64,000 nt of DNA from a phage, in the sequence record PZ154897.1. One strand, 5' to 3'. A program made the translations under genes and the position numbers. The notes below the pieces were generated by a model. The model worked only from the letters and a program-made list of their open reading frames with translations. It was not told the origin of the DNA and did not search any database. Positions 3,771 through 45,523 of this stretch are shown piece by piece (within the stretch, counting starts at the first letter, position 1; each line of letters begins with the position of its first letter).

Positions 3771-4105
3771 TTCATAATCACCAGATAAGCAGATTTAGCA
3801 GTTTCAACACGATAAATTTCGTGACGAAGTTTAGTTATACTTTTAATAACAGAACTAATTATATTCTGCCCATCTTTAAAGCGGTTTTTCTTATCAATAA
3901 AAATTGCGCCAATCATCTTTTTGTGAAGCTCAACCGGATACTTCGTCACAATAATAGCATCATACACAGAAGGATGAATACTGTTCACCAGAGTATCATT
4001 CATTAAAGTTATTCTAATGAACTGTGCTGTTTCAGAGTCAAGCGCTCTATGATCGCCAGTATCATTTTCAAGACAATTATCAATTATATCAGTTAAATTC
4101 ATCAT
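3767..4105 (-). CDS. hypothetical protein (112 aa)
   Basis: ORF overlapping neighbours by 4 nt. Confidence 0.45.
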   Translation of the reverse strand: MMNLTDIIDNCLENDTGDHRALDSETAQFIRITLMNDTLVNSIHPSVYDAIIVTKYPVELHKKMIGAIFIDKKNRFKDGQNIISSVIKSITKLRHEIYRVETAKSAYLVIMK

Positions 4106-4338
4106 AGTACGCCATACACCCTTTGTGCTTCAACTAATCCATCAAAATCCAGTTTAAGATGTGTTATTTGGTCACCATCACCTGGATTCACAATTACTAA
4201 TACTGAACGAGGAGTCTCGGTAATAACACGAACCGATGTTTCAGGAAATCGTTCAGAAACCTTATTTACCAATTCTTGAGCAAATAGTTTAACTTTTTCT
4301 TGGAATTCTTTAACAGTAATTGGTTTTTCGCTTAGCAT
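4102..4338 (-). CDS. hypothetical protein (78 aa)
   Basis: ORF in array. Confidence 0.45.
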   Translation of the reverse strand: MLSEKPITVKEFQEKVKLFAQELVNKVSERFPETSVRVITETPRSVLVIVNPGDGDQITHLKLDFDGLVEAQRVYGVL

Positions 4339-4859
4339 GTTGATCCCAGCTCCTTACTTTCAACGTTTTTAACTAATTTGACAGAAACTAATTCGGCATC
4401 TTGGGTAATCATTACCGGGCCTTCTTCATACTCTTCAAGATATTCTAGAGCTTTCTTTTTAGCTTCTTCCTTCGTATCAGTTTGAGCATAGATATAGAAC
4501 ATACAACCAGTAATACCTACTACTTTCCACTTAATTTCTTTATCAGCTTTAATTTCAAATTTACTGACAGAATCATCTTTTTGAACTTCTTCGAAAAAAG
4601 AATATTCTAACATATAAGCAATTGAAAATAACGGGCTAACTTTATAGGATTCGCCCATTACATCAACAGCTTTATACCAGCAATCGTCAATTTCGCGTTT
4701 AATGCTAATAACATTTTTCGCAGGATCTATTTTTACTTTAAATGAATTTTCCCCAATAAACTGGGCAATTCGTTTATTAGCCCCGCAAGTTTCATTAAAA
4801 ATATCTTTATATCCAGCTTTAAAGCGATAAACCTTACCTTCTTCAAACCATTCGCTCAT
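4332..4859 (-). CDS. hypothetical protein (175 aa)
   Basis: ORF preceded by early promoter. Confidence 0.45.
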   Translation of the reverse strand: MSEWFEEGKVYRFKAGYKDIFNETCGANKRIAQFIGENSFKVKIDPAKNVISIKREIDDCWYKAVDVMGESYKVSPLFSIAYMLEYSFFEEVQKDDSVSKFEIKADKEIKWKVVGITGCMFYIYAQTDTKEEAKKKALEYLEEYEEGPVMITQDAELVSVKLVKNVESKELGSTC

Positions 4860-4884
4860 TTCAATTTCCTCATTTGTTTTGGTA

Positions 4885-4922
4885 GAGCTATAATATCACA
4901 ACTCTACCGTAAAGTAAACTAT
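4885..4922 (-). promoter_or_regulatory. T4-type early promoter (GTTTAC, 18 nt, TATTAT)
   Basis: revcomp of 4915-4920 is GTTTAC; -10 flanked by 7-bp inverted repeat GGTAGAG/CTCTACC. Confidence 0.6.
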
Positions 4923-5197
4923 TAAATTGCTTTGAATTCTGATGTCTGTGATTCAAAACGAATATCGCCTTTGATAACTAACTCAGCATCAAGACCAAAT
5001 ACGACAATGATATGCGCAGAACCTGGATACAGCGTAATGGCGATAGAATCCACCTGGTCTGGAAGCAAAGTGTTCAATACATGAGTCACTTGAGCATGAA
5101 TTCGAAGCTCAGCTGCGTTATCAAGCTTTTCAAACATATTATTAGCGATAATTTGGCTAAACACTACTTCTACGATTTTAGAATAAGTCGGAAACAT
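4922..5197 (-). CDS. hypothetical protein (91 aa)
   Basis: ORF in array. Confidence 0.4.
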   Translation of the reverse strand: MFPTYSKIVEVVFSQIIANNMFEKLDNAAELRIHAQVTHVLNTLLPDQVDSIAITLYPGSAHIIVVFGLDAELVIKGDIRFESQTSEFKAI

Positions 5198-5199
5198 AT

Positions 5200-8237: not shown

Positions 8238-9825
<1,588 letters not shown>

Positions 9826-9852: not shown

Positions 9853-11031
9853 TTAAAAGTATTTTTTAAAACTCATCATAACTTTATCATCAACATCATT
9901 ATCAATCTGTGCAACAAGGTAAGATGACAGTTCTACTTCTTGTGGCGCGGATTGAACATTATCAGAATTAAGATATTCACGAATCCAAGGATATGGGTGT
10001 TTAACCGGAGCATCGGTAATTGGGCATGGAAGACCACACTGTTTCATACGAGATACAGTTAAGTAATCAATAAAGCTCCACATGCTATTTGTATTTAATC
10101 CAGGAACATCACCATCTTTAAATAAATGAACTGCCCAGTCTTTTTCTTGACGGTTAACTTCCATGAAAATATCAACTGCTTCTTGTTCACACTCTTGAGC
10201 AATTTTAACCCATTCATCACCATCAGTTCCAAGCTGAAGTTGACGAATAATATATTGAGTGCCTTTAAGGTGAAGCTGCTCATCACGAGCAATGAACTTC
10301 ATAATCTTGGCATTACCTTCCATGATTTCCATGTTCTTATGGAAGTTAAATGTACACGCGAAAGATACGTAAAAACGAATAGCTTCCAGGGCGTTGATTA
10401 CATGAAGGCAAAGATAAAGAGATTTCATTAGTGCTCGTTTAGCTTCGGCTTCTTGTTTAATAGCTCGATTTAAACGAAAATCAGCATCAGGAGATTCTTT
10501 GGCTAGTTCTACAAATTCTTTAGCATTTTCCCATTCACGGGTCTTCTTAAGAACATCATCGTAATAGCGACCAATGGACTCAGCGCGTTTCATAATATCT
10601 TCATCTAATACAATCTCATCAAATACCTTTGACGGATCAGTATAAAGATTTCGCATGATATGGGTATATGAACGACTATGAATAGTTTCACTAAAAGTCC
10701 ATGTAGCAACCCATGTATCAAGACTTGGGTCTGAAATTAACGACATAAGTACAGCAGACGGTGCACGACCCTGAATGCTATCTAGAAGTGATTGATACTT
10801 CAGGTTATTAGTAAAAATATCTTGCTGATATTGAGGAAGCTTGTTAAATTGTGCAGCATCCATCATCAAGTTTACTTCTTCAGGACGCCAGAAAAATGAC
10901 AATTGCTTTTCGGTTAAATCTTCAAAAACTTTATGGCGTTGAATATCATAACGCGCAATACCAAGACCTGAACCGAAGAACATAGGTTCTTTTAAAACAT
11001 CAACTGGATTTGTATTAAAAACTGTAGACAT
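9853..11031 (-). CDS. nrdB: ribonucleotide reductase small subunit NrdB, uninterrupted (392 aa from ATG 11031)
   Basis: begins MSTVFNTNPVDVL; contiguous full-length ORF, no intron. Confidence 0.95.
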   Translation of the reverse strand: MSTVFNTNPVDVLKEPMFFGSGLGIARYDIQRHKVFEDLTEKQLSFFWRPEEVNLMMDAAQFNKLPQYQQDIFTNNLKYQSLLDSIQGRAPSAVLMSLISDPSLDTWVATWTFSETIHSRSYTHIMRNLYTDPSKVFDEIVLDEDIMKRAESIGRYYDDVLKKTREWENAKEFVELAKESPDADFRLNRAIKQEAEAKRALMKSLYLCLHVINALEAIRFYVSFACTFNFHKNMEIMEGNAKIMKFIARDEQLHLKGTQYIIRQLQLGTDGDEWVKIAQECEQEAVDIFMEVNRQEKDWAVHLFKDGDVPGLNTNSMWSFIDYLTVSRMKQCGLPCPITDAPVKHPYPWIREYLNSDNVQSAPQEVELSSYLVAQIDNDVDDKVMMSFKKYF

Positions 11032-17468: not shown

Positions 17469-17696
17469 TTACTGCTCAATAAATCCTGTGTAAAATTCTA
17501 CATCTTCAGCATCCATACCGTCACAATATTCATTAACCATAAATTGTTTAAGACGATTTAAAGGACCTTCAATAACAACTGAAACATTGCAATTAGGATC
17601 ATTTAGTGCGCTTGTAATACGGAGTTCAGGATAACGATTACGAATAATTTCTTCAATATATTCAAAATCAACAACATCAATATCAATTTTAGCCAT
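17469..17696 (-). CDS. hypothetical acidic protein (75 aa) with own SD; also forms the C-terminal part of the gene 32 read-through frame
   Basis: ATG at 17696 preceded by AAGAGGAAAA. Confidence 0.5.
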
Positions 17697-18647
17697 GTTA
17701 TTTTCCTCTTTAATCATCATCAGCAGTATTGCCGATAGTTGTATAGTACCACAGTATGCTTTGGGGTCCGTGTCATCAGCACTAGATGAACTGCCAGAGC
17801 TTGAGCTCATAAAATCATCTTCAGTTTTTGTTTTGAAGTCATCAACATTGAATGCATCCAAATCATCAGCAACTTTATCAGCTTTCTTAGCGGCAGTTGC
17901 TGCGGCACCACCCATAGCAGCAGTTCCCATAACTTGACTGAACTTAGTGCTCAGTTCTTCAAACGATTTGAATTTATCTTTAGAAGTCATTTCAGAAAGG
18001 TCAACCATTTGTTCGAACAGTTCTTTCTGGAAAGATTCATCATCAATGTTTGGAATCGCAGATTGATTCAGGAATTTAGATTCGTCGTAGTTACTAAAAC
18101 CAGAAACTTGTTTAACTTTCAGTACAAAGTTAGCACCTTCCCACGGACAAGTTACATCAACAGGAGTTTCACCCATTTCAACATCAACTGCAATCATTGC
18201 ATTGATTTTATCCCAGATTTTCTTACCGAAACGATATTTAAATACTTTACCTTCATTTTCTGGAGCAGCTGGGTCTTTTACAACAAGAATGTTAGCCCAG
18301 TAAGAAGTTTTACGTTTAACAAGACCGTACTCTTTATTGTCAGTGTTATACAAATCATTTTTACTGATGTACTGACATACTGGACAAGAATCGTAATCAC
18401 CGTAGGTAGATGAGCATGTTTCGATATACCATTTACCATTTTTCTTGAAACCGTGATTTACAAGAAGTGCGAATGGTGCTTGTTCATCATTTTTAGACGG
18501 AAGAAAACGAATTACTGCTTGACCGTTACCCGCATTATCGAGTTTCAGTTTCCACTCGCCTTTATCTTCAGAAGAAAAACCACCTTTATTTCCAGCCAGT
18601 TTAGCCATTTGTGCAGCGAGTTCAGCAGTAGATTTACGTTTAAACAT
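17469..18647 (-). CDS. 32: single-stranded DNA-binding protein gp32; frame lacks a stop at the T4 position and continues to 17469 (392 aa)
   Basis: residues 1-294 match T4 gp32 through ...SSSSADDTD; the last 8 codons and stop of T4 (LDDLLNDL*) are absent and replaced by a promoter-like repeat. Confidence 0.85.
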
Positions 18648-18700
18648 TTTTATTTCCTTTTTTAATTTAATTAACAGTTGGTGCTATGACACTTTACCTC
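18648..18700 (-). promoter_or_regulatory. gene 32 translational operator / AU-rich leader
   Basis: minus strand ...UUAAUUAAAUUAAAAAAGGAAAUAAAAAUG, the classic gp32 autoregulatory leader. Confidence 0.65.
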
Positions 18701-19331
18701 ATAGCTGGCATAATTCGCAATACTCTGGGTCTTCGAGAGGTATCCAACCTGAGTTGAAATACTTTACCATCGATTTAGCAGTTGTATCAGTTATATTTAT
18801 ATTACCTTTAACTCTTCGCCATCCAGGAGTTTTACCGTACAGATTAGAGGATAATAATAACACATAATTCTCGTAAGCAATATGAGATAATTTCCAAGAC
18901 TCTATATTAGCTCGTGATGTTTTCCAAGGTCTAAAATCGTCACGGTTCATATAATTAGCCAATCTCATATGCTCTCTAACTTCCGGGTCTTTGGCTGGAT
19001 GAGTTTCACCACTCACACCAAATCCGCCGCCAGCATATACCAGATTAAAATAGTCTGGATTATCTCTGGCATTTACTTCAAGTTGGTATTTTCGCTCTGC
19101 TTCAATAACATCCAAATCATCATCAATTTGAATTATTTTAACGCTCGGTTTTTGAAGCATTACCGCATTTAAAAATCTTTTTTGTTTGCACGAGCTCCAG
19201 TATTCCTTTCCGGAAGAGTCATATATTATTCCATTCTCAAATGAGCAATTTAATTTACTGCCGATATAGTAGTACGGCGGAGTCTTATTTTTGACACGGT
19301 CTTCAAATGTAAACCAATATACTATATTCAT
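18699..19331 (-). CDS. segG: GIY-YIG homing endonuclease, SegG-like (210 aa)
   Basis: N-terminal IVYWF...YYYIGSK GIY-YIG motif; between genes 59 and 32 as T4 segG. Confidence 0.65.
   Translation of the reverse strand: MNIVYWFTFEDRVKNKTPPYYYIGSKLNCSFENGIIYDSSGKEYWSSCKQKRFLNAVMLQKPSVKIIQIDDDLDVIEAERKYQLEVNARDNPDYFNLVYAGGGFGVSGETHPAKDPEVREHMRLANYMNRDDFRPWKTSRANIESWKLSHIAYENYVLLLSSNLYGKTPGWRRVKGNINITDTTAKSMVKYFNSGWIPLEDPEYCELCQL
18794..18801 (-). promoter_or_regulatory. candidate late promoter TATAAATA about 150 nt upstream of gene 32
   Basis: exact TATAAATA on minus strand inside segG 3' end. Confidence 0.35.
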
Positions 19332-31971: not shown

Positions 31972-32008
31972 TGGATATAGTACCATTATCAGTGTTGATT
32001 GTAAACGG
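31972..32008 (-). promoter_or_regulatory. T4-type early promoter for asiA
   Basis: revcomp of 32001-32006 is GTTTAC; extended -10 TGGTACTAT. Confidence 0.6.
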
Positions 32009-33803: not shown

Positions 33804-34439
33804 TCACAGTTCAGATGCTACAGTAATTACAGCTTCAATGTTTTCTGCCGAGCGTTTAATGTCAAGATACACATTACCGTTTTTAGCGATTTTACATGAC
33901 ATTCCGATATCAGTAAATTTCTGAATATGATGTTCCATCATTTTGTATCCAAAAATTCGCATATTTCCATTGTTGTTAATTTCAAAATTACGAATTCCGT
34001 GAGTGCGTTTTTCTAAAATAGCAAGATAGTTACTACGATAAGTTTCAACCTTTTTAAGAACAAATCCATTTTCATCTAAAAGTTTTAACATGAAGTCTTT
34101 ATCTTCTTCCATATCAGAAGTAATCTCGCGAGCTTTACGAGTTGCTCGTTTTTTCAGCAGTTCAGGAGCGTTTTCCTGCGCGTATAAAGTTGCCGCATTT
34201 GAAATAATATCCTGAGCTTCACCTGTAATGATTAATCCATCACCAGATTTCTCTACCAGGCCTTTTTTAATCAATACCCCAATATTACTATTAACTACTG
34301 CATTACCTAAATCTGGATGCACCTCACGAACTTCTGCAGCTGTAATGAAATCTTTCTTAGCAATGGTAATTAAAATCGCAGCAGTTTTTTCATTCAGAAC
34401 ATCGTTAGAAGCTTTGATGATGTAAGTTACTTTAGACAT
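33804..34439 (-). CDS. motA: middle-transcription activator MotA (211 aa)
   Basis: MSKVTYIIKASNDVLNEKTAAILITIAKKDFITAAEV...; matches T4 MotA. Confidence 0.95.
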   Translation of the reverse strand: MSKVTYIIKASNDVLNEKTAAILITIAKKDFITAAEVREVHPDLGNAVVNSNIGVLIKKGLVEKSGDGLIITGEAQDIISNAATLYAQENAPELLKKRATRKAREITSDMEEDKDFMLKLLDENGFVLKKVETYRSNYLAILEKRTHGIRNFEINNNGNMRIFGYKMMEHHIQKFTDIGMSCKIAKNGNVYLDIKRSAENIEAVITVASEL

Positions 34440-34519
34440 TTTCTAATCTCCGTAATTCTGTATCAGTAGTTGATAGTTGTATAGTACCACAGTATGCTTT
34501 GGTCGGCTCTCCCTAAAAT

Positions 34520-34669
34520 TTACTGCATGACTGTGATAACTGTCATAATAACACGTTGAATTCCGAATGCAAGAAGACCTCCTGCTACGGCTTGAACAAC
34601 ACCTAAACCCGCCAGTAAAATACTACCGGATACTAATGCAGCGCTTGTAATACCTATGAATGGACTCAT
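34520..34669 (-). CDS. small hydrophobic membrane protein (49 aa)
   Basis: ATG overlaps gene 52 stop (ATGA); hydrophobic throughout. Confidence 0.4.
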   Translation of the reverse strand: MSPFIGITSAALVSGSILLAGLGVVQAVAGGLLAFGIQRVIMTVITVMQ

Positions 34670-38046: not shown

Positions 38047-38069
38047 TTTTACTCCTCCGTAGCTGATAG

Positions 38070-38106
38070 TTGTATAGTACCACGGTCCTTGTGGTATGTA
38101 AACTGT
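38070..38106 (-). promoter_or_regulatory. T4-type early promoter (GTTTAC, 18 nt, TGGTACTAT)
   Basis: revcomp of 38099-38104 is GTTTAC. Confidence 0.6.
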
Positions 38107-45352: not shown

Positions 45353-45523
45353 TACAATTTCCTCATTAATTGAACATTGGAGCGATGCGTTTCAGAAGAG
45401 TATCAGCACCTTTAACGAATTATCCATTTTATTCTCCAAGTTGTTTTCTGTATCAGTAGTTGATATTGATATAGTACCATAATCAACTACTGATGTATAT
45501 AGTTTTATGAAAAATTTTAAACT

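Follow-up and report, generated by a model that had tools for sequence, protein, structure and literature searches.

The 31-bp repeat that occurs twice in this phage DNA is a biologically ordinary element: judged by its sequence, it is the downstream half of the already known early promoter of motA and frd.3 in T4-like phages and a member of the promoter-early stem-loop (PeSL) cassettes. What looks extraordinary around it, namely the missing -35 elements and terminators, the "breakpoint" in gene 32, and an open reading frame fusing gp32 to Frd.3, is very probably the product of vector-contamination trimming of the sequence record and not of a loss suffered by the phage. The window, i.e. the whole stretch of 64,000 nt from record PZ154897.1 that was analysed, is a segment of a Tequatrovirus (T4-like) genome in which the motA, frd.3, and gene 32 loci lie on the minus strand.

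A search of the whole window finds two exact plus-strand copies of the 31-mer, GATAGTTGTATAGTACCACAGTATGCTTTGG, one at 17734-17764 and the other at 34472-34502, as the earlier note had reported; allowing up to three mismatches adds no copy in the window, and 100 shuffles yield none. The minus (coding) strand shows CCAAAGCATACTG-TGG-TACTAT-ACAACTATC, composed of a 13-nt spacer (CCAAAGCATACTG), a TGn element (TGG), a -10 hexamer (TACTAT), and a start region (ACAACTATC). The element had been described as promoter-like, and rightly so, since these are the successive parts of a T4 early promoter and are identical to those of the T4 motA promoter. Copy 1 (17734-17764, minus strand) matches exactly and is the remainder of the frd.3 early promoter, whose intact form in phage SH-2 has GTTTACAA upstream. 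Its spacer occupies 17764-17752, TGG 17751-17749, TACTAT 17748-17743, and ACAACTATC 17742-17734, all on the minus strand, and transcription is predicted to start near A17736. Copy 2 (34472-34502, minus strand) is the remainder of the motA early promoter, the same 31 nt standing upstream of T4 motA; its -10 hexamer lies at 34486-34481 and its TGn element at 34489-34487 on the minus strand, with a putative start near A34474. At both copies the TGn element directly precedes a -10 hexamer of the form TAnnnT (17751-17743 and 34489-34481). Downstream of copy 2 follow the motA leader, with a GGAG Shine-Dalgarno sequence that is a known RegB site (PMC2988021), and motA itself (211 aa, 33804-34439, minus strand, placed by the annotation of relatives). 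Upstream lies motA.1 (49 aa, 34520-34669, minus strand), whose stop codon is intact. At the other locus, frd.3 proper (17469-17696, minus strand) begins with an ATG at 17696 and has a Shine-Dalgarno sequence of its own, AAAGAGGAAAATAACATG. At 17710-17718 (minus strand), CTGCTGATGATGATTAAAG contains an extra GAT that is common to phage GEP001 and appears to be a natural variant.

What the file lacks is the upstream half of the promoter. A consensus scan of the window finds no GTTTAC(A/T) -35 element 17 nt upstream of the -10 hexamer at either copy, in agreement with the earlier note, and calls no -35/-10 promoter and no terminator at the two loci. The A/T-rich UP region (about -40 to -60), TTTTTTATTTCAAAAATTTTTTCACAAA, likewise has no match in the window and is found in relatives. 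In T4, the region upstream of motA is identical to the 31-mer at 31 of 31 bases, which makes the element orthologous to a known early-gene promoter: motA encodes an early product, and T4 early promoters are of the UP/-35/TGn/-10 class (PMC2988021). The T4 motA promoter is preceded by the motA.1 terminator hairpin and TTTTTTATTTTAAAAATTTTTTCACAAAACGGTTTACAA. The T4 frd.3 cassette, immediately past gene 32, agrees with the motA copy in the 42-bp upstream part and in the 18-bp -10 core but has a different spacer, and the gene 32 stop there is normal. In SH-2, the motA and frd.3 loci share a repeat of ~72 bp with 2 mismatches, including the full 31-mer at both, and again gene 32 ends normally; several other relatives also have a frd.3 copy with the motA-type spacer. 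Intact relatives show at both loci a terminator hairpin, a T-tract/UP region, GTTTACAA, and then directly the 31-mer, and a -35 element at the orthologous sites is seen in T4, SH-2, ime09, and SA20RB. The earlier note had named the presence of the element at the equivalent position in T4, next to a normal gene 32 stop, as a finding that would count against its reading; this is what T4 has, and SH-2 has the same with the 31-mer at both loci. Its suggestion of an extended -10 promoter working without a -35 element is accurate for the file, but the -35 element is probably missing from the file only, as the relatives have GTTTACAA and the absent DNA corresponds to a vector-like fragment.

At gene 32, alignment with SH-2 and SA20RB places a junction, GGACC/CCAAAGC (a slash marks a junction or cut), between 17764 and 17765, where 106 bp are absent relative to intact relatives. 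The file reads GACACGGACC/CCAAAGCATAC at this point, and in the intact relatives the two halves stand 106 bp further apart. The absent DNA runs from TGGATGACC...TAATAG through the gene 32 terminator hairpin and the T-tract/UP region to the -35 element GTTTACAA, and takes with it the last 8 codons of gene 32 and the stop. Deprived of its own stop, gene 32 runs through the 31-mer into frd.3, giving a 392-aa ORF (17469-18647, minus strand) composed of gp32 residues 1-293, 24 residues from the promoter remnant and the frd.3 leader, and the 75 aa of Frd.3. This ORF is most likely a spurious fusion made by the missing 106 bp. One copy of the repeat had been said to coincide with a gene 32 rearrangement, and the ORF does read through the 31-mer there, but the breakpoint most likely reflects trimming. 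Pfam domains PF08804 and PF05798 are both found on protein cluster P0001, the homology search returns a single fusion cluster (phiC600P9) against a normal cluster of 417 members, and the exact 392-aa protein has no entry in the protein collection. A 1179-nt CDS annotated as SSB is also present in CrRp10, phiC600P9, vB_Eco-B1.1, and GEP001, and the gene 32 junction has no match in the IMG/VR scan. Beside this locus, between genes 59 and 32, the window carries a segG-like homing endonuclease gene (18699-19331, minus strand) that is missing from these four phages despite the same gene 32 junction, and the junction thus occurs on different backgrounds.

At motA, comparison with SholemSchwarzbard, a haplotype with identical flanks, places the junction GAGCCG(A)/CCAAAGC between 34503 and 34504, with 48-49 bp absent. 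Of the motA.1 terminator hairpin the 3' arm is lost, along with the T-tract/UP region and the -35 element (GTTTACAA), and GGGAGAGCC (34505-34513, minus strand) is left as the orphan 5' arm of the hairpin. No record in the phage collection matches this motA junction. An extra A in GCAGTAAATTTT at 34521-34523, after the motA.1 stop, is also present in SholemSchwarzbard, Shfl2, and HMD-9 and looks natural.

The 18-nt minus-strand core TGGTACTATACAACTATC has three exact copies in the window, the third of which (38065-38082) sits within an intact early promoter with GTTTAC at 38098-38103, close to the span of 38070-38106 that the earlier note had given for this promoter. This third, intact member of the cassette family, GTTTACATACCACAAGGACCGTGGTACTATACAACTATC, occupies 38065-38103 on the minus strand and is preceded by AAAAATTTTCACAAAAC. 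Seven other early promoters of the GTTTAC type in the window are all intact, and the -10 sequence TGGTA(C/T)(T/A)AT is common to the 31-mer and the window's other early promoters. The shorter core noticed upstream of asiA, rnlA, and a cef-like gene is indeed there as the 10-nt TGGTACTATA (31976-31985, 9388-9397, and 45470-45479, respectively), and is simply the common T4 -10 consensus. Upstream of rnlA (9388-9430, minus strand), ATGCTTCC stands before TGGTACTATA at the position of a MotA box, and hence the site at 9388-9397 looks like a middle promoter and not an early one. Just downstream of the promoter at 45470-45479, at 45413-45420, a small ORF is ~215 bp shorter than in SH-2 (9968-10183), its ATG and first codons being joined to ...AAAGGTGCTG..., a cassette-adjacent indel.

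The same gaps recur in public records. Ten gapped GenBank records (GEP001, CrRp10, phiC600P9, vB_Eco-B1.1, TB004, SP21535, Sfk20, IME537, ZN18, and ZCEC15) represent several Tequatrovirus species, with origins in France, China, Poland, Malaysia, and India. Every record with a gap at the motA locus (10/10) is also gapped at the gene 32 locus, while in ~98% of records neither locus is gapped. The exact gene 32 junction of the window is found in GEP001, CrRp10, phiC600P9, and vB_Eco-B1.1, and with one extra base in TB004, which keeps one extra A at both loci, fitting an off-by-one cut. The left end of the gene 32 gap follows GGACC in nine of the ten records, ZCEC15 being the exception, on at least three promoter-spacer haplotypes, and the right end lies after GTTTACA(A) on three spacer haplotypes or earlier within the T/A tract. 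The motA gaps of the ten records have several left ends and a right end no more than one base away from GTTTACAA/CC, and they occur on three hairpin-loop haplotypes, each of which exists intact too. In uncultivated material, metagenome and IMG/VR scans for the 31-mer returned 11 loci, 10 of them intact and the other a copy of ZN18.

Gene 32 annotation has suffered in these records, and the damage traces to the same missing stretch. In CrRp10 (NC_054899.1, 654-1832) the 392-aa fusion is deposited as an "SSB" with the RefSeq accession YP_010065297.1, and IME537 (3961-5169) has a 402-aa "SSB" fusion. Sfk20 (4263-5198) has a 311-aa SSB that overlaps an extended frd.3, whereas in SP21535 (3265-4291) gene 32 is unannotated and TB004 bears no annotation at the locus of the gene 32-frd.3 fusion. 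In ZCEC15 (PQ871103.1, 5138-5430), the gene 32 gap starts ~100 nt further upstream, adjoining an earlier TGGATG, and a truncated 277-aa SSB results; this gap may have been cut by hand, with the wrong TGGATG chosen as its start.

The ends of the gaps point to a laboratory construct. The Omega interposon of Prentki and Krisch 1984 carries T4 gene 32 terminators beginning at the GGACC/TGGATG point. Omega interposon ends, known from the work of Prentki and Krisch in 1984 and Fellay in 1987, are a T4 gene 32 terminator fragment that has been built into many cloning vectors and gives rise to false "vector contamination" hits, and the vector-screening database UniVec presumably contains this T4 gene 32/Omega fragment. 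The interposon is flanked by strong terminators (PMC6381291). A search of a plasmid collection finds the T4 stretch TGGATGACC...GCATAAAGCTT (117 bp, NC_000866 146857-146973) at 100% identity in three marked plasmids, twice in each and as inverted pairs; in pCoo, for example, two inverted copies surround aph(3')-IIIa, and TGGATG is directly adjoined by a GATCCGG linker. These 117-bp plasmid stretches are the ends of the Omega interposon. The first base missing at gene 32 is the first base of the 117-bp fragment (GGACC/TGGATG), a point that is also a BstNI/EcoRII site, and the far end of the gap is where the phage stops matching the fragment.

To simulate such trimming, we compared intact relatives with the Omega end by blastn, using the parameters of VecScreen, and deleted the matched span. 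The simulated junctions, GGACC/CCAAAGC (that of the window), GGACC/TCCCTG, GGCTCT/CCAAAGC, CTCTCCC/CCAAAGC, and CTCTCCT/CCAAAGC, are alleles that have really been observed, and nearly all junctions of the ten genomes were reproduced, at scores of 27-117, which rank as moderate to strong under VecScreen rules. The gene 32 junction of the window was obtained from haplotypes of the OIWM01 and ERZ1673747 types, and that of the SP21535 type from the SA20RB haplotype. Intact SH-2, put through the same screen, gives strong matches at exactly the gene 32/frd.3 and motA loci. The window gives no match in that screen and has no 14-mer in common with the Omega fragment. The third cassette at 38065-38103 escapes flagging because it has diverged too far from the T4 gene 32 fragment; its counterpart in SH-2 scores 20.

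The simulation also accounts for the finer differences among the cuts. With a CC spacer, in which the base following GTTTACAA is not that of T4, the right end comes directly after GTTTACAA; it comes after GTTTACA in SP21535 and Sfk20, which have T where T4 has A, and inside the T/A tract in IME537 and ZN18, which diverge earlier. The one-base differences between spacer types thus arise because the next base does or does not match T4. Similarly, the motA left ends differ because the length of the T-run differs. In other words, the gap ends depend on the haplotype, the gene 32 gap starts at the boundary of a cloning fragment, and the similar loci of a record are hit together regardless of phylogeny. 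The exceptions are the gene 32 left end of ZCEC15 and the motA left end of the window. The latter lies to the left of every cut simulated on the one haplotype whose flanks are identical, by 10 nt or, when scoring is relaxed, by 5-6 nt, and was not reproduced by eight BLAST scoring schemes.

These observations suggest the following history. The 31-mer is the downstream half of two paralogous terminator/early-promoter cassettes of the T4 type, one just after gene 32 that would drive frd.3 and another just after motA.1 that would drive motA. In the phage itself both cassettes are almost certainly complete, with a GC-rich hairpin, a T-tract, an A/T-rich UP region, GTTTACAA, and the 31-mer, and host sigma-70 RNA polymerase would be expected to start early transcripts there ~7 nt after TACTAT, right after infection. 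A vector screen would flag the spans matching the 117-bp T4 gene 32 terminator fragment, and cutting out the flagged spans would leave an exact 31-bp repeat with sharp upstream edges, no -35 element, and no terminators; at gene 32 the excision would create a false in-frame gp32-Frd.3 fusion. We infer that a UniVec-type screen followed by excision is what PZ154897.1 actually underwent. A literature search turned up nothing published about fusions to frd.3 or about false VecScreen positives among T4-like phages.

One may argue that the gaps are real and that phages recurrently lose the DNA separating the terminator hairpin from the promoter spacer because it is prone to breakage or attacked by a nuclease, which would convert two strong UP/-35/TGn/-10 promoters into AsiA-immune extended -10 promoters fed by read-through and fuse gp32 to Frd.3. 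The junctions are indeed present in several deposited isolates from different laboratories, the phages are reported viable by several labs, which fits a real allele if the fusion is tolerated, and TGn/-10 promoters can work without a -35 element and are AsiA-immune (PMC2988021). In addition, the gaps are bordered on each side by the foot of a hairpin, a small one in the spacer at the right end and that of the terminator at the left ends, and the window's own motA junction is unique and not given by the trimming simulation. We nevertheless regard such deletions as unlikely, as there is no biological reason for them to begin at the first base of a restriction-fragment boundary from 1980s cloning, to shift their ends by 1 nt according to whether the next base matches T4, or to affect both loci in every affected record and neither in ~98% of records. 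Moreover, the junctions are blunt even where CC microhomology is available, an essential protein would lose its stop and final 8 residues, and the deletion is not found in uncultivated contigs. Taken as a statement about the phages, this reading means that the terminator, UP, and -35 half of the cassette is lost recurrently and almost to the base, simultaneously at the two loci, and that gp32 stays viable with its final 8 residues gone and Frd.3 as a C-terminal extension. This is quite improbable; if it were true, the acidic C-terminal tip of gp32 would be dispensable and site-specific breakage would act on these cassettes. Several biological causes of the common right end at GTTTACAA/CC were considered: a T4 primase start at GTT, which is on the opposite strand and would give 5'-ACCAA, stalling of an exonuclease at runs of CC, cleavage by endonuclease VII at the homology borders of ectopically paired cassettes, slippage between the terminator hairpin and the small spacer hairpin, and one ancestral deletion followed by C-run changes or ectopic copy-choice. 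All were dropped because the fixed gene 32 left end, on three spacer haplotypes, is the boundary of the Omega fragment. A new MotA box at the junction was also rejected, as consensus and spacing do not fit.

An assembly artefact unrelated to screening, in which a short repeat or a hairpin plus an A/T-rich, low-coverage stretch was collapsed or bridged, would explain why the motA loss is almost exactly the 42-bp stretch common to both cassettes and agrees with the differing homopolymer lengths in the tract among assemblies. It is very unlikely all the same, since a de Bruijn or overlap assembler cannot make a junction k-mer that is absent from all reads, the gene 32 gap reaches 64 bp into unique sequence, the idea of a repeat border fails in genomes whose spacer is common to both loci, and the same ends appear across assemblers and platforms (e.g. 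CLC on MiSeq for CrRp10; PMC7412075). A variant involving repeat collapse or an "update contigs" step was discarded, as it leaves the loss of 64 bp of unique gene 32 sequence unexplained. That the 31-mer itself is an active recombination or mobile element behind the gene 32 rearrangement is scarcely credible, even though PeSL cassettes mediate indels and exchanges (PMC2839356, PMC4122927) and the 31-mer ends downstream at a natural mosaic boundary, beyond which the motA leader, the frd.3 leader, or an extra 75-aa ORF stands in different contexts. Cassette recombination removes or exchanges the intervening DNA, not the upstream half of each copy separately, and many relatives carry the 31-mer with a normal gene 32 stop. 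The proposal of a recombination hotspot in the earlier note holds for the cassette class in general, which shows spacer conversion and insertion of the 75-aa ORF (PMC4122927), but leaves the gene 32 breakpoint unexplained.

Trimming of the record, the preferred reading, has practical implications. Taken literally, the file would describe TGn/-10 remnants, with frd.3 and motA also reached by read-through from gene 32 and from gene 52/motA.1, respectively; we do not think that this describes the phage. Instead, genuine phage sequence matching the T4 gene 32 terminator of Omega interposons has apparently been cut from PZ154897.1 and from at least ten public Tequatrovirus records, and this serves as a data-quality warning. 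The cuts remove two terminators and two -35 regions and damage the annotation of gene 32, and gapped records would mislead promoter surveys, comparisons of the gp32 C-terminal domain, and analyses of recombination breakpoints, as they did the earlier note.

In comparison with known systems, the 31-mer is closest to the T4 motA/frd.3 early promoter, to which it corresponds at 31/31 bases, in its position before the motA leader with GGAG, and in a -10 core that is the same at T4 frd.3; the file differs in lacking the GTTTAC -35 element, the A/T-rich upstream region, and the preceding terminator at both copies. It also resembles extended -10 sigma-70 promoters, with TG at -15/-14 and TACTAT at -12 to -7, a class that needs no -35 element and is AsiA-immune (PMC2988021), although the real phage promoter most likely has all four elements. 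The likeness to the Omega ends is of another kind: the plasmid stretch of 117 bp is 100% T4 and starts where the gene 32 gap of the window starts, yet the window holds none of the fragment, so that the likeness is to the stretch that is missing and not to one that is present.

The PeSL cassettes described in T4/PST and other T4-like phages (Arbiol 2010, PMC2839356; Comeau 2014, PMC4122927) provide the natural frame for the intact element. In intact relatives the cassette has the stem-loop terminator, A/T-rich tract, TTTACW, 17-nt spacer, TAYWAT, Shine-Dalgarno sequence, and start codon; it recurs at several places in one genome, it lies at indel borders, and an extra ORF occurs between two cassettes before motA. 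Its repetition is evident from the three 18-nt cores in the window and the ~72-bp repeat at two SH-2 loci, and its place at borders of indels and exchanges from the conversion of the frd.3 spacer (T4 vs SH-2), found in its motA version in many phages, and from the 75-aa ORF insertion. This extra ORF, seen between the 31-mer cassette and motA in OBRH01000009.1 (6100-6600) and also in ZN18, ZCEC15, and L022, is bounded by two terminator/promoter cassettes, each followed by ATCAAATAAATGAACTGAAAC, a textbook PeSL-bounded insertion or deletion. The stem-loop is a feature that the window does not show, there being no terminator at either locus and only the 5' arm at 34505-34513, whereas both hairpins are intact in relatives. 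Published "half" PeSLs keep the -35 element, the stem-loop, or both, and the window keeps only the -10 half; the loss of the upstream half here looks editorial rather than evolutionary.
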